Positions 9,655 through 21,160 of a DNA stretch of 64,000 bases are shown piece by piece. The position numbers and the translations under genes were made by a program. Source of the stretch: Podarcis muralis (lineage: Eukaryota); contig NC_135671.1 in assembly GCF_964188315.1 (NCBI RefSeq), positions 4,278,001 to 4,342,000 on the forward strand, given 5' to 3'. The notes below the pieces were generated by a model. It saw only the letters and a list, made by a program, of their open reading frames with translations, was not told the DNA's origin and did no database searches. The first letter of the stretch is position 1; each line of letters opens with the position of its first letter.

Positions 9655-11996
9655 TCCTCAGGCAAACATGAGATGCTACCTTCTACTAATAGTGCAGCAG
9701 GTCTACCGTGATTGACTCTTTCTGGCAGTGTCGCTGCAAGGTTTGAGGCAAAGACTCTGCTATCTGTGAAGCTTGAGTTGTGGTTTTTTGTTTTTGTTTG
9801 TTTTTTACTGGTGATGATAGGGATTGAACCTGAGATGTTCCAAGTACAAAGCCATTCTCTGCCACTGAAATATGACCCTGTTATAGGTTTATGGATTTGG
9901 TAATGGTAAAGGTAATCAGGCCAAGGGAGCCGACGTTTGTCTGCAGACAGCTTTTTCTGGGTCATGTGGCCAGCATCACTAAACTGCTTCTGGTGCACGG
10001 AACACCATGATGAGTGCCAGAGTGCACAGAAACACCACTTACTTTCCCACCGCAATGGTACCTATTTATCTACTCACACTGGTATGCTTCCGAACTGCTA
10101 GGTTGACAGCAGTTGGGACAGAGCAACCAGAACTCACCCTGTCATGCAGATTCAAACTGCCGACCTTATGATCAACAAGCCCAAGAGGCTCAATGGTTTA
10201 GACGACAGTGCTACCTACGTCCCTTTAAGTTTATGGGTTAAATGAGGTTTTGGGGCATCAAGGCTAATTTCCTTGGAGGTGATTACTTGACTCATGTGTG
10301 TATTTAAGTCAGACCCAATGTGTATCTAAGCCATGTGCTGGACCTTGTTAATCCTTTATTTAACCAAGTGTAAAAGCTCATTAAGTTAGATAATTTTCAT
10401 TTGATGTGTTAGTCTGGGGTAGAGCTACACAAAGAATAATAAAAAAATCCCATTTGCAAATGAGTGTGTTTAATAATAATAATAATACCCCGCCCATCTG
10501 ACTGGGTTGCCCCAACCACTCTGGGAGGCTTTCAGCATATACCCTCAATGAAGGGTTTTGTGTAAAAGACAACTCCAGTGTTTTAGCGTGTTAGGAAAGG
10601 TTAGAGTATAGAATGGAAGTTAGGAATGAAGTAATAGAGTTAGGAAGCAATGTGGGCGAGAAGCAGAGAGAGATACTAAGTGAGAAGCAGAGTGCAAGAG
10701 ACAGTGTAGCCTTATTAGACTTTACTGATTGGTGGGCTCTGCATTGCTCCTGGATGGAGGAAGGAAGTCAAATGACACCGAGGGTTGGTTCAGAGAAAGA
10801 GTTCTTTATTTCTGCTCTCCGGAGCAGCAGAAAGGCACTTGCGTGGTCAGTCCACAGCAAGTCCAAAGAAATGAGAGATTTCATGCAGTATATATATCCT
10901 CCAGGCACCCTCTCCCCCTTCCCCAGGAATCTAACCACGTCAGCTTATACACGCAGGTTGACATCACAGATGTTCCTGCTCCGGTACTCTTAACCATAAA
11001 AGGGTTTTCCTTCCTGTAATCCTGACCATAAAAGGTTATTCCTGTTCCTATATTCTTATCTTGGAACAAGAGGTCACCAACTCCAAGAACATACTCTGGC
11101 GCTGTTCCCGGGCTAGGTCTGTGCCTCAGAGTGTGGTCAGGACGTAAGTTAAGACCTAGACATGTCATCCCTGTTCCACTTTGGAATGGACAAGGCCATC
11201 CGTCATTACCAGCCTTCATGGACTGATAAGGGAGAGAGCTCTGAGCACTTGTTTATACAGCTGGGTTTTGGCTCAAGAGCTCAAGTTAAAGCATTTTAGA
11301 AATGCTCCCTTGGAAAAGGAAAAAAAGGTGGATTTTATGGAGTTTGGAACTTAACAGGTTAAGTTGTTCCCATGATGCCACAACATTCTGACGTCAGCTT
11401 TCGAAGCTGGGAGGAGTTTGGGAGGAGTTTGCTGTTCCTCTCTGTGCTGTGAGAGGGAAAGGAAGCAGTTTGTCATGGCTGCAAGTAGTCCTGGATTTTC
11501 CGGAGAAATGTTGGAATAAACAACTGTAAATAGACAAACCTGTACTCTGTGTGTTTGTCAAAGGACGCGGTAGCTTTCCCGCTGTGTGAACTCTGCTGGG
11601 CGTGACTGGACGACGGAGCTAAGTGGCGCAGCTGAGGGAAGCGCGCCGGACGGCAGTAAAGAGCTAAAGCTAATTGTGGATCGTAAATCAATTAGCGGGG
11701 GTCATGCCAAAACAATCAATCAACTTGACAGGTTATGGAACTTAATCACCGATCGTAAAGCTATCACTGGAGATCTGCCGAGAGCTTTGAAGTCTGCGGT
11801 CTAGAGCAGAGAAGCACGGCAGGAGGCGGAGGCTGGAATTTGAGGCAAGCGGCTAGCTGAAAGACGCAGAGGTTTGCCTGTGTTGCTGCGGAGCCGAGAG
11901 CTGAGAGCAGCAAGGGATCGTTTCTCCACGGATGGGTGCCGGAGGAGCTTGTAATCTGTGAGTACAGCTTGGGGCCCCTTGGGAGAACGGAAGAAG

Positions 11997-12656
11997 ATGG
12001 CGGACGGCCATGATTCATTCTCCGTGCCTTTCAAAAAGTTAAACGGCCAGAATTGGGCGGAATGGAGTCGAAAGCTGAAGGCCTGGCTGGTAGCCAAGGG
12101 TCTGTGGGAGGCGGTCTTAGGGCCTCCACTGCCTCCACCAGCTGCCGGAGCTTCGGCTGCAGACATTGCAAATGCGCATGCTTCGCAGAGAAAAAATCAG
12201 AAAGCCCTGGGAGCTATAGTGCTCAGTTTGGAGGGCTCACAGTTGCCCCATGTGGAGGGTTTGGACACTGCGCATGAAGCTTATACTGCTTTGGAAAGAG
12301 TGCACCACAGAACCACGGCTGGTGCAAAAATCCACACCACCAGGCGTTTGTTTGAGATGAAGCTGCGTCCAGGTGGGGACATTAGACAGCATGTTACAGA
12401 GATGCTCTCTGTGTTTAATGAGCTGCGGCTGTTGCAGGTTAACTTCACAGATGAGCTGAAGGTATATATTTTGCTCAGCTCTCTGGACAAAAGTTATGAC
12501 AATTTATGTCTAACTTTGGAGTCTATGAGTCCGCAGGATTTGACTCTGTCATACGTCACGGGACGCTTGACTGACGAACAGGAGAGACGCGTAAGGGAGA
12601 GCAAGTCTGGCGCAGGCAGCTCCACCGGACGCAAGGGGGGGGGGCAGGCCAGATGA
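11997..12656 (+). CDS. gag: copia gag (N-terminal part; frameshifted at a G10 run just before the zinc knuckle)
   Basis: KLNGQNWAEW..., ALGAIVLSLEGSQL, LLSSLDKSYDNL are typical copia gag/UBN2-like motifs; first ATG at 11997. Confidence 0.88.
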   Translation: MADGHDSFSVPFKKLNGQNWAEWSRKLKAWLVAKGLWEAVLGPPLPPPAAGASAADIANAHASQRKNQKALGAIVLSLEGSQLPHVEGLDTAHEAYTALERVHHRTTAGAKIHTTRRLFEMKLRPGGDIRQHVTEMLSVFNELRLLQVNFTDELKVYILLSSLDKSYDNLCLTLESMSPQDLTLSYVTGRLTDEQERRVRESKSGAGSSTGRKGGGQAR

Positions 12657-14808
12657 GAGCTCTGTTCAGGCTTTTTCCACTCGTCGGTGCTATGTGTGTG
12701 GATCCAACAGCCATTTCAAAAGAGACTGTCCACAAAGAGCGAGGGCAGCTGCACAGGAAGGCTTCAAGGACACTTCCCATGGGAATCAGTCGGGTTTCCA
12801 TGGCAACCAGTCTGGAAGAGGGGGCCAGCGTGGGAACGCAAGAGAAGGACGTGGAAAACAACGTGAGGAGGCTTATCAACTAACAGCTAGTCTGGCTTTG
12901 TCTGAGGACAGCTGTGAGACAGGCTCAGAGCTTTGTTTTGTAATCGACTCTGCAGCAAACTGCAATTTGATTCCAGAGACCCCTGCTGTCGAGATGTGGA
13001 ATTGCACGGCAATTCCGACTGGAAAAACTGTACTCTTTGCAAATGGACAGAAAAAGAATGTAACTAATTCTGTGAATGTGCATGTGTTTGTTTTACAGGA
13101 GACGTTGGAGTGTTGTACCATTCCTGGGATGCACCACTGTCTTTTATCTGTGCCTTATTTGTTGAAAAAGGGGTTTAAGGTTTGTTTCGAAGATGATGTC
13201 TGCACAATCTCCAAAGGAGGGAGGATATTTGCCAAGGTTAAAAAGGGGCAGAATGATCTCTTTGTTCTTAAAACACCTCTGGAGGGTGAGGGGAAGGTTG
13301 AGAAAGCACAGGCTCTACGTGCTGAAATCAGCAATCATGTGACATGTGCACATGCGTGGCATGCAAGAACAGCTCATGGTTCTCTAGAAGAACTACAGGT
13401 GCTGCCTGAGGTTTCCAAAGGTTGTGAAATCACAGAATGTGGATGTGCTGTAAATTGTGAAACTTGCAAACTGGCAAAGGTAAGAGGATGCAGTTATCCA
13501 AAAGTGGAGAGGGAAACCACAAAACCTTTTGAACTGGTCCACATAGATTTGTGGGGTCCTGTAAAGGAGGCGAGTCTGGGAGGTGCAAGGTTTCTGCTGA
13601 CGGTGCAGGATAATTTTACGCAGAACACCTGGACCCATGGTCTCAAATCCAAGGATGATGCAGCACAGCTGATCAAAGGATGGATTGAGGAGGTGGAACA
13701 AAGGTTTTCCACCAGAGTGCAAGCAGTCACCAGTGACAGAGGAGCTCAGTTTACAGGGTCTGCTTTGCAGAAGTTCTTTCACAAGAAAGGGATACGTCAC
13801 ACAGTGACTTCACCCAATCAGAGGGGGGTGGCAGAGCTGAGAAGTGAGGCTCTGGTTAAGGCTGCACAGGTGATGCTGGCAGATTCTGGGTTACCTCCAA
13901 GGTTTTGGCTGGAGGCAATCAAGTATGTGGGCTTCACCTGGAATCGTACCTACAATTCACTAGTAGGTGACACACCCTTTGGGTTGTTGCATGGCAGGAA
14001 ACCCCAGATTCATTTTCTGCGTATGTTTGGTTCAAGTGCATCTGTGCCGGTACCTACTGCATTGCAGGGGTCAGATGGATCCAAGTTTTGGAAAATGATC
14101 TTCTGCGGGTATGAGCCAGAAGCACGTGCATGGAGGTTTGCATATCCATCAGGTGACCAGAGTAAGGTGCTGATCAGTAAACATGCTGAGTTCTATGAGC
14201 AGGATAAAAGGTCAAAAACTGCTGTCATGCGTGATGTGCTCTCAGAATGTCTATCTGATTCTGATGAGGAAAGGGAGGTAGAGGCTGATCCCGGTGATGA
14301 GGACCAGGTCCACGATCAGGGTTCAGAATCCGATGATGACGATCAGGTCACTGACCAAAGTCAGGAACAGGAGGAGGTATCTGTAGCTTCTCCACAAGAT
14401 GTTAAGAGAACACCCAAAAGCGAGCCCAGTTCTCCTGTGAGTGTAATGGAGAGGATTCGAAAACGCTTTAAGTCAGAAGGGGAATCCCTTGATGCTGAGG
14501 ACACACCTTCTGGTGGCGGTGAGTCAGAAGTAACATCTGAGTTTGTGCCTAGAAGGTCCAGTCGCACAACAAAGGGTATTCCACCTGAAAGGTATCAGGC
14601 CACAAGTGCGTGGGTATGTTTCGCACAATGTGATTCTGGGAGTGTTGAAGGGGTTCAACAGGTGCCGGGGAAAGATGCTGGAAAGAGGCACAAGGCAAAG
14701 GGAAAGGTGTTGAACTCAAAAAGGTCTTGTCAGAATGTGCGGCAAGGGGGGGTATGGAGTTTGGAACTTAACAGGTTAAGTTGTTCCCATGATGCCACAA
14801 CATTCTGA
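12645..14808 (+). CDS. pol: copia zinc knuckle-protease-integrase ORF running into the 3' LTR; no RT or RNase H
   Basis: CYVCGSNSHFKRDC knuckle, FVIDSAA (degenerate DSG), HARTAH..CETC, LVHIDLWGP / SDRG / VAE (D,D,E), RRSSRTTKGIPPERY; no YVDD or RNase H motifs follow. Confidence 0.88.
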
Positions 14809-15499
14809 CGTCAGCTTTCGAAGCTGGGAGGAGTTTGGGAGGAGTTTGCTGTTCCTCTCTGTGCTGTGAGAGGGAAAGGAAGCAGTTTGTCATGGCTGCA
14901 AGTAGTCCTGGATTTTCCGGAGAAATGTTGGAATAAACAACTGTAAATAGACAAACCTGTACTCTGTGTGTTTGTCAAAGGACGTGGTAGCTTTCCCGCT
15001 GTGTGAACTCTGCTGGGCGTGACTGGACGACGGAGCTAAGTGGCGCAGCTGAGGGAAGCGCGCCGGACGGCAGTAAAGAGCTAAAGCTAATTGTGGATCG
15101 TAAATCAATTAGCGGGGGTCACGCCAAAACAATCAATCAACTTGACAGATTTGGGGTCCCATTTCAAACTGACTGCACAGAAACCCATTCCTTCATTCCC
15201 TCCTCTTCTTTTGGACAGCCTTACGGCTCGTCCCAATCAATCAATCAAAATGTTTATTCGGCTTTACGCCCATCATGAAACACAACACAACACAACAAAA
15301 CAAATAAAAACAAATCAGATCAAATAAAACAGTGGACTCGTACAAGCCACAAGTAGTATAACACAGTTCTCAACTCAGAAGGACAGATATTAGCCATTCA
15401 TAAGAAAAGTTTAACATTAAGATTTTTTTAAAAAATAAATAATTTAGGCACTACACTAAAATCAACATCTCATGTAATTATAGAAAATTCTTATAACTA

Positions 15500-18400
15500 T
15501 CAATAATCAGCTAACATTCCATTCCGTCTCTTGTACGTGAGGACGGCTGTTAGGAATTTAGCAACCTGTAGGGTGATATAAGGATCCACATCTTGAAGAA
15601 CCCAGGCCAGCTGTAGGTCTACTGATTTGTCAGCCATAGGCTGGATTATGGAGTTTAGTATACTAGCACGGGCTGAACTGTACAAAGGGCAGATAAACAT
15701 AACATGATGTAGAGATTCAGATGTTTTCATTTCACACGCACACATTGAAGGGACTTGGCCCTTAGTGAATCTATGTCTCAGCACGTTTGTTGGAAAGACA
15801 TTAAACCTAGCTCTAATGAAGGCATATCGGTGAGACGCGGCCGTAAGCGATGTTAAGTAGGACGGAGCGCGGTAGATAGGGGTTATGCCGAAATTTAATG
15901 GCGAGCAGACTCCACCACCAGCTACGAAATTTTGGTATAGCTCCACATCATCCAGCCTTTGATTTATACACCTTTTTGCCACATTTAGATCCAGTTTGAG
16001 CAATTCAGTGGGCGAGATCTCATAGGACAGCAATTTGGCATGGATTTTTCCTGACCACAAATTGGTGAAGTCATCTCGCCACATGCATTGAATGAGATAG
16101 TGGTTCGGGAGTTTATGCCATAGGGATATCCAATAATTCAAAACTCTCCTCCATATAACTAACTCCACTGAGGGGATCTTCATTTCTAAGCGGATAGCCG
16201 CATTACTTACGCATGTTGGTAATTTTAGAAGTCGGCGTAAGAATTGGCTTTGAAGTGACTCTAAAGGTGAGAGATTTGCAAAGGCAGCCCATAGAGGTGC
16301 AGCATAGGCCATTGTGGCCATCACTTTGATGCTATACACTTTCAAGGCCGCAGGGATGAATAAGGCCCCCTCAGAGTAGAAAAAACGGAGGAGGGAGTGT
16401 GATAGGGCTTTTGTCATGTTTTGAAGATATTCAACATGCGCTTTCCACCCTAAATTATATTGAAAATAAATTCCTAAATATTTAAATTTATGTACTTGTT
16501 CGATTTTCGTGCCCTCCAGTTTCCATGAATAAAGTTTTCGACTCCTTGAAAATATCAGTACTTTGGACTTGGAATGGTTGATAGTCAGATGATTAGAATG
16601 GCAATATGTCGCAAAAATCTTTAGTGCCCTCCTTAAACCCACTCTGGAGTAAGAGAGTAGTACCGCATCATCTGCGTAGAGAAGTAAAGGACAGCGGTAA
16701 TCTGCTATACGAGGGGAGTGGATAAATTTTTGTGAGTCGGCTAATGGGTTCCTCATATCGCTGATAAATAAATTAAAAAGAAGAGGCGCTAAAATACAAC
16801 CCTGGCGTACACCCTTATTTACTGGCACTGGGTTAGTCAGATCTCCAGCAGGGGATAATCTCACCCTGGCCACGGACCCGGCATGAAGTTGGGAGATAAG
16901 CCACAATAACCTTCTATCTATTCCCCAACAAGCAAGTTTATCCCATAGTAATTTCCTCGGAATACTATCAAACGCAGCTTTCAGATCTATGAAAGCTGCG
17001 CAGAGTTGGCCCCGTCGAGGTGTCGAGTATTTCCGGGCTAAGTGATAAAGAATAATTGCCTGGTCTGTTGTGGATCGGTTTAATCTAAATCCAGCTTGCT
17101 CATGTCCAATCAGGTCAGCCTCAACTGACCACTTCATCAGCCTTGCCAGCAAAAAACGGGCATATATTTTCCCAATGGACGATAGCAGACTGATATTCCG
17201 ATAATTCCCTGGGTCACCGGGAGGGCCTTTTTTGTAGATAGGAATTATAATGGCCTCCTTCCACATTCCTGGTATTAAGCCCGTGGCATTTATTGCGTCG
17301 AATGTTTTAGCTAAAATCCCTGCCCACCATGCAGAATGAAGCTTTATAGCCTCAACAGGGACCAAATCTGGCCCAGGGGCCTTACCAGTTTTCAGCTCAG
17401 CTATCAATTCTAGGATTTCAGCAGGGTTGGTATTAGGCCAGACGGGAAGGGGATTAGAAGGTCTCCAATGAGTGGCCGGAGCTTCTGCCACTGAGAAATA
17501 TTTTCTCAGGAACTGCTCCCATGTATGTAGATGGAGTCTGGCTTGTTTACAAGCAGAGTTGAACCAAGGGGCGCCAAATTTAAAATAATCGTTTTTAGCT
17601 CCATAGGTTGTAGAAGTAAAAAAGCGAGTTAAAACGTCTATCAGGCAAGAAAAACAATTCATACAGGTAATAGGATCGCGCGAGACTATTCCTACGTCCA
17701 TCTGATCGCCAGGAAACTTTTCTCGGATAAAATCCGTATATCTATGAGTGAGGGCAGGGGACCATTTAGTCCCCTTTATTTTAGTGGACGACTCCACAAT
17801 CACCGGGATTGGGTGGGAGCGGTCGAGCAACTGCCAGTCAACACATAACTTGGTTGTCAGGGGAAGATGGTCACTAAATTGGGCATTATCAATTTTAAAA
17901 GAGGTGACATTCAAAAATAGATCCCGGGAAACCAATACATAGTCGAGAACACTGTTTGATTTTAAGCCCAGGTGGGTGAATTCTCCTGGTATGTCTGGAG
18001 GACACCTGCCATTTAATATGATTAAATTAAGGCGTAGAGTCATCTGATAGAGCATCACTCCCGCCTTATTGACTTTTACATCCTTTGATATTCTACTGGG
18101 GGTGTATACTAGATCGTAGGTTTGAACGCCGGGGTCAACCCACCACTTAGACTTTTTAAGAGCCTCCTGATTTGATGCTATCCGAGCGTTAAAATCGCCT
18201 CCAGTAATGGAGGGGACATTGGGATACTTAAGATAACAAGAAAGTAAAAAATCCTCTAGGGATTCCCATCTAGAAGTAAGATCAGCTGCTAACCCTCCTG
18301 GAGGGAAATAGACATTTGTAACCAATAAAGTGAAGTTTCCACCAGAGATCAGTCCGGTAATAGCATAAGGCGGAAATGCATGCACTAGTGAAAGTTTAGC

Positions 18401-18655
18401 CCGAAGTTTGAGGGAGATACCAATTGTAAGGCCACCTTTAGGGTGGCCACCATTCATTGACGGGCTAGCAGGCAGACATATAAACTCAAAGCCATTTAAC
18501 TCAATTTCCTCCTCCACCCAAGTTTCTTGTAATAGTATGATAAGAAAGGAATTAATATATTTTTGGAATTCTGGATCTAATTTTTTGCTTTTCCAACCAG
18601 CAATGTTCCAACTTAATATTGAAGGCTGGGGTTTCCCCGTTCCTCCAATTGACTG
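15500..18655 (-). CDS. LINE ORF2: APE endonuclease, reverse transcriptase, C-terminal CCHC; open frame begins right after the ORF1 stop with no AUG
   Basis: ILSWNIAG, LLQETW, GDFNAR, SVLDY, SDHLP; YRNISLLS, AAFIDLKAAFDSI, KGVRQGCILAPLLFNL, LLYADD, FKYLG; CACEMKTSESLHHVMFIC. Confidence 0.93.
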   Translation of the reverse strand, partial: QSIGGTGKPQPSILSWNIAGWKSKKLDPEFQKYINSFLIILLQETWVEEEIELNGFEFICLPASPSMNGGHPKGGLTIGISLKLRAKLSLVHAFPPYAITGLISGGNFTLLVTNVYFPPGGLAADLTSRWESLEDFLLSCYLKYPNVPSITGGDFNARIASNQEALKKSKWWVDPGVQTYDLVYTPSRISKDVKVNKAGVMLYQMTLRLNLIILNGRCPPDIPGEFTHLGLKSNSVLDYVLVSRDLFLNVTSFKIDNAQFSDHLPLTTKLCVDWQLLDRSHPIPVIVESSTKIKGTKWSPALTHRYTDFIREKFPGDQMDVGIVSRDPITCMNCFSCLIDVLTRFFTSTTYGAKNDYFKFGAPWFNSACKQARLHLHTWEQFLRKYFSVAEAPATHWRPSNPLPVWPNTNPAEILELIAELKTGKAPGPDLVPVEAIKLHSAWWAGILAKTFDAINATGLIPGMWKEAIIIPIYKKGPPGDPGNYRNISLLSSIGKIYARFLLARLMKWSVEADLIGHEQAGFRLNRSTTDQAIILYHLARKYSTPRRGQLCAAFIDLKAAFDSIPRKLLWDKLACWGIDRRLLWLISQLHAGSVARVRLSPAGDLTNPVPVNKGVRQGCILAPLLFNLFISDMRNPLADSQKFIHSPRIADYRCPLLLYADDAVLLSYSRVGLRRALKIFATYCHSNHLTINHSKSKVLIFSRSRKLYSWKLEGTKIEQVHKFKYLGIYFQYNLGWKAHVEYLQNMTKALSHSLLRFFYSEGALFIPAALKVYSIKVMATMAYAAPLWAAFANLSPLESLQSQFLRRLLKLPTCVSNAAIRLEMKIPSVELVIWRRVLNYWISLWHKLPNHYLIQCMWRDDFTNLWSGKIHAKLLSYEISPTELLKLDLNVAKRCINQRLDDVELYQNFVAGGGVCSPLNFGITPIYRAPSYLTSLTAASHRYAFIRARFNVFPTNVLRHRFTKGQVPSMCACEMKTSESLHHVMFICPLYSSARASILNSIIQPMADKSVDLQLAWVLQDVDPYITLQVAKFLTAVLTYKRRNGMLADY

Positions 18656-20419
18656 TCATTCGGAAAATTGGCTCAACTTTAATGCGGGAAGAGGGGAGCC
18701 AATAAAGAAATCAGTTATCTTCCTCTGATGAGAAACCTCTCGTAAAGGCTGAGTGGGATTTACAAGGTCATCTGACTGTTGAGCTTGGCCCCTCGATCTA
18801 CTAGGAGTAGGACTTTGAACAGGGGCGGACCCCTTTTCCAAAAGAGTTTGGTGGGCCACCCGGGATGGACCAGCTATCTCGTCAGTTTGGTCTCTCTGTA
18901 GCCTGCTACTGGTCTTTTGGGCTACTTGATTTATGTGGCCTGTTGGGTCTTCAATCAGTTCCGTCACTGGTCTTGTTGTTGAATCCATAATATTCCGCAA
19001 AGAGGGATAAGGCTGGGTGAGAGGGCTTTTTGGGAGGGTTTGCAAAGGCACCTCTTCTCTTGATTGGTCAGTGCTATAAGAAGGTTCCAGGTCTGGCATC
19101 GATGAATGTGTGGAAGGGGATTTTTCCTGTTGTGTGCTGCATTCTTCAGGTATGTTTTTCAATGGACGGTCATGTAAATCTATTAAGAGCACAGAGGATT
19201 GTTCTGCTTGGAGGGAAGGACTGGTAGTTGCTTCTTGGGGTTGAATGTTATCCTCCATTGCCGACATACATTTAGCATTAGATATTGAGAGATCCATATG
19301 ATCTGGTTCTTCTGGTTCTTCATGTTCGCTGTACGTGAGTATTCTGGTGCTGAGTTTCCTCATAAGTTGGGTTTTAAGCGATTCCAGTCTATTAATAATT
19401 TCTTTTTGTTCCACCACTGGTAAATCAGCAAAGGAGGCAATGAGTTCGATCTCTTCTGGTGGTGTCATGCCACTTTTCGGTTGGTCGTTGTTCTTTGCTA
19501 GGGGAGTGGAGGCCACATAACTCTTCTCCTGGGGTAGAAGACCCACTCCGGTGTCCACTGGTGGATCGGGTTTAGCAGATTTTGAGCCCTCTTTGGTTAT
19601 TGCCTCCAACAATAGGGGTTTAGGCGAAGGGTCTATAAAGGTTCTCGTTGGTGCTATCCCACAGCGAAACAAAAATGCTTTCTTTCGTAATATGATAGTG
19701 GGAATTTTTGTGGATTGGAACGCAAGCAGGACTCTCTGGAATTTATGATGATGGACAAGGGGGAGGACTGCACAGAGGTCAATTTGTGTTGCTTCCATAT
19801 TTAAAAGCACCTTTAGGAGTTCCTTAGCACCACCCAGAGTTCTCCATCTTGGGTCCCCATTTTGTATAGTTAGGCTCACTTTCCTCGGAGTTAAGATCAA
19901 GGATTGATGACCTAATTGAAGGTTAAGGTTGTATTTAAATTTGTCAGTACGTTTGTTATTTAAGGACAAACTCCTCGTCCCCTTCCTCTCTTCAAGGGAC
20001 TTTACACCGACTGACGCTGGGGAAGTAGTAACTAGCTTTTGTTGGAGGCTGTGCAGCTGGGACGAAAGATCATCTAGTCTTTTGAATATACAGTGCAAGG
20101 TTTTGATTATCAAATGGGACTGTTCAAATGTCATATGATTGGCCGTGCCAAGGACCAATTCCTCCTTCTGAGGCGAGACTACACTCTTACTGTTGGCCAC
20201 ATCGCTTGTTATTTGTGGAATTATTTGCTCTTCGTCTTTAAGTGCTGACGCGCAATCAATCAGTGGGTTGAAGCGGTTCTGAGTTTCTACCGTGTAGGAG
20301 CAATCCAGTAAATTACTCCCATCTTTAAAGTGACCTGGTTCAACCCTTGTTTGCTTTGATTTCGGAAAGGGAACGGGGACTATCTCCTCGGAATCTCTAA
20401 GGCGTTTCCCATATCCCAT
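18656..20419 (-). CDS. LINE ORF1 (587 aa): coiled-coil-like segments, central globular region, disordered C-terminus with PIP box
   Basis: Uninterrupted ATG-started ORF upstream of and in frame with ORF2, inside the TSD-bounded element. Confidence 0.88.
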   Translation of the reverse strand: MGYGKRLRDSEEIVPVPFPKSKQTRVEPGHFKDGSNLLDCSYTVETQNRFNPLIDCASALKDEEQIIPQITSDVANSKSVVSPQKEELVLGTANHMTFEQSHLIIKTLHCIFKRLDDLSSQLHSLQQKLVTTSPASVGVKSLEERKGTRSLSLNNKRTDKFKYNLNLQLGHQSLILTPRKVSLTIQNGDPRWRTLGGAKELLKVLLNMEATQIDLCAVLPLVHHHKFQRVLLAFQSTKIPTIILRKKAFLFRCGIAPTRTFIDPSPKPLLLEAITKEGSKSAKPDPPVDTGVGLLPQEKSYVASTPLAKNNDQPKSGMTPPEEIELIASFADLPVVEQKEIINRLESLKTQLMRKLSTRILTYSEHEEPEEPDHMDLSISNAKCMSAMEDNIQPQEATTSPSLQAEQSSVLLIDLHDRPLKNIPEECSTQQEKSPSTHSSMPDLEPSYSTDQSREEVPLQTLPKSPLTQPYPSLRNIMDSTTRPVTELIEDPTGHINQVAQKTSSRLQRDQTDEIAGPSRVAHQTLLEKGSAPVQSPTPSRSRGQAQQSDDLVNPTQPLREVSHQRKITDFFIGSPLPALKLSQFSE

Positions 20420-20960
20420 AATTCAGATGTCAAGAAGGGGGGGGGGGATAGTATTTCAAAGTCGGCGTCTTCACCTTCTCCCTCACAAGCCGGCAATTTA
20501 GGTCTATAAGGAGACTACCGGTAAGCAACACAGACCGTTCCTTTGAAGTCCTACTCCCACCAGGACTAAGACTAATATAAGTTTCTCCTTCGAAGCTTAT
20601 CGCAGGGCCCACCGCGGGTCGGTCTCAGATGAAAGGGGAACTCCCAAAGGCCTCACCTTAAACAGGGGAGTTTCTCTTCGTACCAGAGGTGCAGGTCCGA
20701 AGGATTGTTGTTCTATGAAGCACACAAGTTTGGCACCACCCAGATCAATCCAAAGCAATCCTCCTTCGTCAAACTTAGTTAAAATCTGGCATCACACCAG
20801 TGGAGAGTCCAGCAATTACTTGTCTAGCAAAATGCAAAACTAAAGTAAATAGCTTACTCCAACGGTTGTAAAATCCAAGTCAGGAGAAGAGGTCGGAGAG
20901 AACTGGAAGGAGGAACCTTACACGGTGGCCATCTTGGAAGCTCTCCCAGGCTCGTCCCAA

Positions 20961-21160
20961 GGCATTGGCCGGTATTCTCATGTCAGTGCTATAATCTGGG
21001 GCCGAATCATTCGTGACATGTTTTATGCATCATATTTTGCAGGCATTGCATTAAGCAGGGTATACGGGTGCAGAAAAGAAGCAAGATTAGCAAGGGGCCT
21101 ATTAACATCATTAAAAGTCCTCTAAGCCACCCAAGGTTCAGAAGCCACTCAGTCAACCAA
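20961..21160 (-). mobile_element. env: ERV env TM remnant (unit 2 copy), cut by a deletion at about 21160
   Basis: Near-identical to 28741-28940, which encodes the TM anchor GWLRGLLMMLIGPLLILLLFC. Confidence 0.75.

Follow-up and report, generated by a model that had tools for sequence, protein, structure and literature searches.

An in-frame UGA-C between ORF1 and ORF2 of lizard LINEs as a candidate site of stop-codon readthrough

A young LINE and its ORF1-ORF2 junction

A 64,000-nucleotide stretch of the Podarcis muralis genome (contig NC_135671.1, positions 4,278,001 to 4,342,000), here called the window, carries on its minus strand a full-length young long interspersed nuclear element (LINE), referred to as family A (Table 1). 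The element has a target-site duplication and a tandem-repeat tail and lacks long terminal repeats (LTRs), all hallmarks of LINEs. By every feature tested it is an apurinic/apyrimidinic endonuclease (APE)-type LINE. The second open reading frame (ORF2) of family A matches Exo_endo_phos (PF03372, residues 14-263) and the reverse transcriptase (RT) domain RVT_1 (PF00078, 475-730) above the Pfam cut-off, and its nearest solved structure in the PDB is human L1 ORF2p (E 8e-52). The closest named protein to the window ORF2 comes from Podarcis lilfordi (94% identity). Over window positions 15234-20937 the copy is 99% identical to one on contig C6. An in-frame deletion of 225 nt at about 17524, between endonuclease and RT, distinguishes the window copy, whose ORF2 has 1051 aa compared to 1126 aa in intact copies. 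The intact arrangement of ORF1, TGA and the 1126-aa ORF2 was found in 4 of 6 full-length family-A copies retrieved.

Table 1. Features of the family-A element in the window (positions of the window).
Feature	Position	Strand	Remark
Full-length young LINE, APE-type non-LTR retrotransposon (family A)	15237..20948	-	flanked by 12-bp duplication
5' target-site duplication, 12 bp	20949..20960	-	identical to 15225-15236
3' target-site duplication, 12 bp	15225..15236	-	pairs with 20949-20960
ORF1, 587 aa, ATG at 20419	18659..20419	-	predicted helix, RRM-like domain, helical hairpin, tail
PIP-box-like peptide QRKITDFF	18704..18727	-	23 residues upstream of ORF1 stop
Sole in-frame TGA separating ORF1 and ORF2, predicted readthrough codon	18656..18658	-	30/30 aligned copies
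CAG-TCA, 3' context of the stop	18650..18655	-	across families, +4 C alone is common
Predicted hairpin, begins 6 nt 3' of the stop	18618..18649	-	family A only
AUG-less ORF2 frame: 15-codon lead, APE endonuclease, RT, C-terminal CCHC-like segment	15500..18655	-	
3' untranslated region (UTR), AATAAA then (TTGA)n repeats at end	15237..15499	-	

On the minus strand the junction reads TCC GAA TGA CAG TCA ATT GGA GGA ACG GGG AAA CCC CAG CCT TCA ATA TTA AGT TGG AAC, with its in-frame TGA-CAG-TCA exactly as a preliminary description of this DNA had given it. The stop-to-stop frames on either side, 20422-18656 (588 codons) and 18655-15500 (1051 aa), share one phase. Two endonuclease landmarks of the family-A ORF2, WN and LQE, lie at residues 16 and 42; the first methionine follows at residue 67 (18457). 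There is thus no in-frame AUG ahead of the endonuclease motifs, as had been claimed, and a protein begun at this methionine, or at GTG 18517, would miss the first of these motifs. If the stop were read through, the fusion would comprise 1714 aa in intact family-A copies and 1639 aa in the window copy. The earlier figure of about 1640 aa is therefore right for the window copy and too small for the intact family.

TGA-CAGTCA was present in 30 of 30 aligned family-A copies without any indel across 105 nt of the junction, and both frames were open in 12 of them (1.7 kb compared per side). The exact 17-mer starting at the stop occurred 34 times in the genome (control: 0). The preliminary description had named two alternatives for other copies, a lost base and a sense codon in place of TGA; neither was seen in the 30 aligned copies or the 34 exact matches. 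For contigs filed under a second organism label, no change in the junction (18597-18683) was among the differences listed. Since family-A copies are 93-100% identical to one another, the uniform junction reflects the state of the active element and not selection.

Removal of the stop from the RNA by splicing or editing was considered here. TGAC can be read as a branch point, the lead (the segment from stop to WN) of family A contains four AGs, and the leads of two sister families (F5, F6) are pyrimidine-rich. An altered RNA should retrotranspose, yet a query placed wholly 3' of the lead hit 35 family-A places, of which 32 extended to the first base of the query, and all 32 belong to the 34 places with the intact stop; the other three start within the endonuclease. 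There are therefore no spliced or edited family-A copies among the places that reach the query's first base. An AG ahead of the W is missing in sister families B and F1, and no splice joints were found in eight RNA runs, in which coverage was thin. We consider this explanation highly improbable.

UGA-C at the junctions of sister families

Queries for the genome searches were junction DNA and endonuclease fragments from more distant relatives, and one or two copies per ORF-length class were retrieved before the junctions were inspected. At least 23 related families were found, a lower bound since the candidates per search numbered 63-849 and 40 or 150 of them were scored. The counts leave out two degraded single copies belonging to the frameshift branch described below (L127, L129), two L1-like bystanders in L032 and L418, and 6 of 200 and 8 of 110 loci in which the start of the endonuclease could not be placed. 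ORF2s of these families are 28-65% identical to that of family A, and the 13 aligned ORF1s have a central domain in common. The junction stop lies in the ORF2 frame in 21 of 23 families. It is TGA in all 21, and TGA-C in 18. Frame and stop are thus conserved across related families, as the preliminary description had expected of a readthrough site. An ORF of 400-837 codons ends in frame at the junction stop in 19 of the 21. Behind TGA, the 18 TGA-C families have CTA (5), CAA (4), CAG, CTC and CTT (2 each), or CGG, CTG and CAT (1 each), so that CUA, CGG or CAR directly follows the stop in 12. A prediction made ahead of the last retrieval was borne out by four new families with regard to the in-frame TGA (4/4) and largely with regard to TGA-C (3/4).

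The terminal stops of ORF2 in 19 intact elements served as a control; 8 of these are TGA and a single one is TGA-C (Fisher p 2e-7 against 18/21 at the junction). Because some families share junctions through descent or recombination, the families were also merged into 14 junction lineages, 12 of which have TGA-C (p 3e-6, tips treated as independent). Four-fold sites are 29-37% identical (mean 33%) among six A-group families. In seven families, none of the 30 nt 5' of the stop is invariant, yet TGAC is. As judged from these alignments, neutral sites had time to change among the sister families, and synonymous sites are near saturation where measured.

These data bear on the possibility that the layout is an inheritance that no longer serves a function: a single ORF would once have been split by a stop, TGA-C would be ancestral, and ORF2 would be made by internal entry or from a sub-genomic RNA. 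The families do share ancestry, some share junctions outright, and RNA reads give no sense-strand coverage by which to judge transcript forms (in five raw RNA runs the mean depth at the junction was 0-2.4, a few reads at most, apparently antisense). TGAC was kept through the turnover of flanking and synonymous sites, and ORF2's own stops vary freely in the same elements, which makes an inherited relic very unlikely.

Several families share junctions in spite of different ORF2s. F9, F10, F12, F19 and F20 (L161, L164, L168, L177, L180) share ORF1 ends and junctions and have very different ORF2s; the same holds for the ORF1 end and junction sequence of F17 and N4 (L166, L401). In L126, an F1-type ORF1 end and stop are joined in frame to an ORF2 of the frameshift type. 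Shared junctions of this kind point to ORF1-ORF2 swaps that would keep the frame. In a separate observation, one 25-codon window of the A-group ORF2 (about codons 936-960) has a four-fold identity of 0.73 compared to the mean of 0.33; this may reflect the small number of sites, or an RNA element.

The lead varies between families. It has nine lengths, from 7 to 64 codons, and keeps the ORF1 frame throughout. An in-frame AUG is absent from the lead in 18 of 21 families. Near-cognate codons occupy no shared position, and the leads of F5, F12 and F16 have none. Ribosomes that end ORF1 might restart in frame within the lead independently of an AUG and make free ORF2p; a possible restart codon in family A is ACG, codon 6, which has the context G..G and lies immediately 5' of the inner hairpin. 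Mammalian L1 provides a reported precedent (PMC5009743, PMC5972666), slow termination at UGA-C could favour restart, F1, F17 and N3 do have in-frame AUGs in the lead, and the coupling in SART1 is described as helped by downstream structure (PMC5972666). The start position is not shared, with no near-cognate codon at all in three leads, and restart has no obvious need for UGA over UAA or UAG, nor for a single frame across nine lead lengths. Two families, moreover, retain a fusion-type layout with a slippery site (see below). AUG-independent reinitiation is thus an unlikely source of ORF2p.

A second form of restart would use the AUG that overlaps the stop (AUGA), as in SART1, followed by a +1 shift into ORF2. 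Eight of 21 families, family A among them, have such an AUG. In all eight it is out of the ORF2 frame, where a SART1-type stop-start would have it in frame; it is absent from the other 13, no copy with a missing base was found, and the overlap follows from an A preceding UGA. We give this route a negligible likelihood. All readings other than readthrough and AUG-independent reinitiation are, even jointly, quite improbable. A search of 15150-21000 for selenocysteine recoding gave no Rfam match at E <= 1, a search that could miss unusual selenocysteine insertion sequence forms.

In the two remaining families, L189 (G000:C2:1597700-1603900) and L192 (G000:C9:10313700-10319900), ORF1 and ORF2 overlap in the -1 frame, and an in-frame AUG is again absent. 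Their ORF1s are homologous and stop at TAG-A and TAA-A. An in-phase T TTT TTA lies 84 nt ahead of the endonuclease WN in 16 of 16 and 9 of 10 copies; U_UUU_UUA is reported as the slippery sequence of HIV-1 (PMC4373837). The overlap is a candidate for programmed -1 frameshifting. The slippery site is located within an NG[SC][IV]F peptide, which the in-frame families encode without the U run. Folding of the RNA 3' of the slippery sites gave z -0.2 to -2.5 (rough shuffle). The two families are sisters nested among the readthrough-type families in both FastTree trees; deep nodes differ between the trees and the placement of the frameshift branch is therefore only moderately supported. Both the in-frame and the -1 layout would yield an ORF1-ORF2 fusion. 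The slippery layout is what would be expected were the fusion required by the clade, which is a weak argument when taken alone.

Sequences next to the stop, the ORF1 protein and neighbouring elements

The preliminary description had attributed the readthrough to a CARYYA context and to a GNRA stem-loop 6 nt after the stop. Both were found in family A, the first as TGA-CAGTCA and the second as a prediction, and neither extends to the clade. CARYYA follows the stop in 2 of 21 in-frame families (A and D). Among folds of 18610-18660 the hairpin (18649-18618) has the lowest energy (-15.1 kcal/mol; z -2.6, matched by 3 of 200 shuffles), and four longer windows that were folded gave z of only -0.25 to -1.26. 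Equally stable 40-nt windows made up 12 of 1627 overlapping windows in the coding region, the junction window included. The hairpin also gives the best fold of the first 45 nt after the stop in family A (z -3.2); none of 16 other folded families reached z -1.7 in this segment. None of the six nearest sister families has a comparable GNRA hairpin spaced by 6 nt. Within family A, two shared variants keep or extend the hairpin (21 of 30 copies gain a pair; the loop is GAAA or GGAA), and three single-copy changes weaken it. The hairpin-keeping variants do not amount to covariation.

Absent from the sister families and without compensatory pairs, the hairpin was ruled out as a signal of the clade; it may stimulate readthrough in family A. 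Type I readthrough motifs are reported to work without structure (PMC13517186). A crude long-range pairing scan of the lead against the rest of the element, run without a proper control, placed the best duplex at +700 and not at the 3' end.

The ORF1 protein was modelled. The prediction comprises a long helix (residues 86-131), an RRM-like domain (175-262; predicted local distance difference test score >90), a helical hairpin (321-362) and a long low-confidence tail, whose ~220 residues could form a flexible linker. RRM-type structures matched residues 175-267 with Z 7-8, human L1 ORF1p RRM (Z 7.0) being among the ties. The best Foldseek E value was 2.7e-3, a Pfam scan gave no match, and the best score of an ESM Atlas search with residues 30-370 was 0.85, which we treat as a lead only. 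Esterase ORF1s are reported from some RTEX elements, not universally (PMC3905857). No esterase was seen in the family-A ORF1 by Pfam scan or structure matches; its predicted fold is of the RRM type.

Near the end of ORF1 lies QRKITDFF, which we take to resemble a proliferating cell nuclear antigen (PCNA)-interacting peptide (PIP) box; PCNA binding is putative. Counterparts occupy the same place in sister families B, F1, F5 and F6, with FL variants in C and D, and six families (L161, L164, L168, L177, L180, L185) have a PIP-box-like QxKIxxFF/YF near the N-terminus of ORF1. The pattern is absent from the ORF2s of families that carry the ORF1 peptide. In L1, the PIP box is reported in ORF2p (PMC10830420). 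A fusion would place the PIP-box-like motif on the RT-bearing chain; ORF1p acting in trans could also supply it.

Some further observations concern the copies of family A and their surroundings. Two subtypes are seen in L035-L040, one with a (TTGA)n tail and the 5' UTR of the window copy, the other with a (TTG)n tail and a 5' UTR whose sequence departs from that of the window copy 5' of about position 20680. A short hairpin-like motif 5' of AATAAA recurs across many families. Lizard gene models for the kinesin KIF6 and a vomeronasal receptor (P0008, P0019) contain pieces of the family-A ORF2 and are probably annotation artefacts. In the window, a Copia-type LTR element on the plus strand (11336-15151; 399-bp LTRs, 99.2% identical) adjoins the LINE. 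Its gag-like frame (11955-12656) and integrase-bearing frame (12595-14808) are in different phases, and no RT domain was found in it. Relatives of this element flank L031 and L034. A 30-Mb contig (C20) holds a large share of the full-length copies of many families, including 11 of 16 family-C matches, an enrichment that would fit a chromosome with many repeats and little recombination, for instance a W.

Readthrough as the favoured reading

The favoured reading takes up four observations: the layout itself, its fixation in family A, the retention of UGA-C in divergent families and the absence of an AUG. Taken together, the comparisons indicate that readthrough at UGA-C probably makes an ORF1-ORF2 fusion of ~1714 aa (1639 aa from the window copy). 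Most ribosomes would stop at UGA-C and release ORF1p; in a few percent or less, an amino acid would be placed at UGA and translation would run on to a ~1714-aa ORF1-endonuclease-RT protein. Low readthrough would result in a high ratio of ORF1p to RT, and the fusion would join ORF1p multimers, tethering the enzyme to its own RNA. The stop tetranucleotide would be the signal, to which the family-A hairpin may add. For mammalian cells, UGA is described as the leakiest stop and +4 C as the leakiest context, with 3-4% at UGA-C in one mammalian reporter study and a general basal readthrough of 0.01-0.1% (PMC4615788). The gag-pol-like leaky UGA of the preliminary description thus gains strong support from the comparison of families at the level of the stop and its +4 base, and loses CARYYA and the hairpin as general signals.

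A number of points count against readthrough. The junction has TGA-A in three in-frame families (F13, F17, N4), and one F17 copy carries TAA. The retrieved copies of F18 and N2 showed no long ORF1. In-frame AUGs lie 5, 31 and 2 codons ahead of the W in F1, F17 and N3, respectively, and the AUG-independent ORF2 start proposed for mammalian L1 (PMC5009743) suggests by analogy that an AUG-less ORF2 need not be made as a fusion. The p values given above overstate significance since the families are related, and in the forecast of four new families CUA, CGG or CAR followed none of the three TGA-C stops. More distant metagenome relatives (22-26% identity, 80 loci) had a long in-frame ORF1 with TGA-C in 0 of 13 located junctions; in two of these relatives a long in-frame ORF ended at TGA-A or TAG-G. 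A consensus fold of seven A-group families over 108 nt reached -1.09 kcal/mol with 7 pairs, 0 of them compensatory, and synonymous conservation did not rise 3' of the stop in the A-group families, unlike at many viral UGA sites. In overlaps of this kind, chance alone would place a heptamer in phase with a probability of 0.11-0.16; the two slippery families, being sisters, represent one event, and their site lies in a conserved ORF1 peptide. Among 5910 candidates, no natural ORF1-ORF2 fused protein of 1316-3755 aa was found at E <= 0.001, a weak negative, and no close ORF2 protein match exceeded 1187 aa. Finally, the evidence for translation by readthrough is comparative sequence.

The junction was compared with known viral sites. 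Viral readthrough motifs are described as UGA-CUA/CGG and stop-CAR-YYA (PMC3159437). UGA-C and a polymerase as C-terminal extension are common to the LINE families and the viral UGA sites of Beier-Grimm type II (alphavirus, tobravirus) and type I (CAR-YYA; tobacco mosaic virus) (PMC3159437, PMC4615788), whereas the LINE families lack a shared 3' stem and a synonymous peak. Type I is defined on UAG, and the junction stop is UGA in 21 of 21 families, with CARYYA not kept. With type II, family A shares UGA-C; the following triplet is CAG in place of CUA or CGG (found in 6 of 21 families), and there is no conserved stem (0 compensatory pairs over seven families and 108 nt).

In Paramecium, UGA is the only stop codon. 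In non-LTR Group 3 of Paramecium tetraurelia, an APE and RT LINE, a single frame holds ORF1 and ORF2; it was suggested from consensus sequences that the stop of ORF1 is read through, and the sister groups of Group 3 are said to need frameshifting or reinitiation (PMC5405496). Group 3 differs in being a separate clade from a ciliate. The statement that readthrough had not been characterised in a LINE accordingly stands for experiments in the literature searched (Repbase reports and subscription journals being outside reach), where no experimental report was found, and not for the proposal as such. Dictyostelium TRE5-A and TRE3-A are APE-type LINEs said to need a -1 frameshift for ORF2 (PMC5911963), which would give a fusion as in the two slippery families. 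They differ in using a frameshift and in targeting tRNA genes; 21 of 23 lizard families are in frame. Mammalian L1 and Bombyx SART1 likewise have a bicistronic LINE RNA; human L1 has the nearest solved ORF2p, and a helix-RRM-helical ORF1 is a further common feature. Both are described as making free ORF2p, L1 with a 63-nt spacer and an AUG, SART1 with an overlapping stop-start (PMC5972666, PMC5009743). In LTR elements a protease cuts the fusion, and a protease domain was not found in family A (Pfam scan). SIRE1 is one LTR element with readthrough. Further cases of LTR gag-pol readthrough are reported for Schizosaccharomyces japonicus Tj1 (PMC5911963) and murine leukaemia virus (PMC3159437), where, as proposed here, a single stop determines how much structural protein is made relative to polymerase.

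To account for ORF2p production from the two-gene RNA of human L1, an AUG-independent initiation has been invoked (PMC5009743). The 23 coexisting, recently active families provide a natural series of UGA-C in frame, UGA-A, AUG-bearing and -1 slippery junctions. In one branch of the clade, readthrough was apparently swapped for -1 frameshifting with the fusion kept. We see about an even chance that this vertebrate LINE clade makes its RT only as an ORF1-ORF2 fusion, with UGA-C ancestral and U_UUU_UUA -1 frameshifting derived; this would resemble gag-pol but lack a protease, and ORF1p would also bring a PCNA-binding motif. If readthrough holds true, gene callers that start ORF2 at the first methionine or GTG drop the first catalytic motifs of the endonuclease, the RT of a LINE acts in covalent linkage to ORF1p, and the mobility of the element would depend on the termination fidelity of the host.

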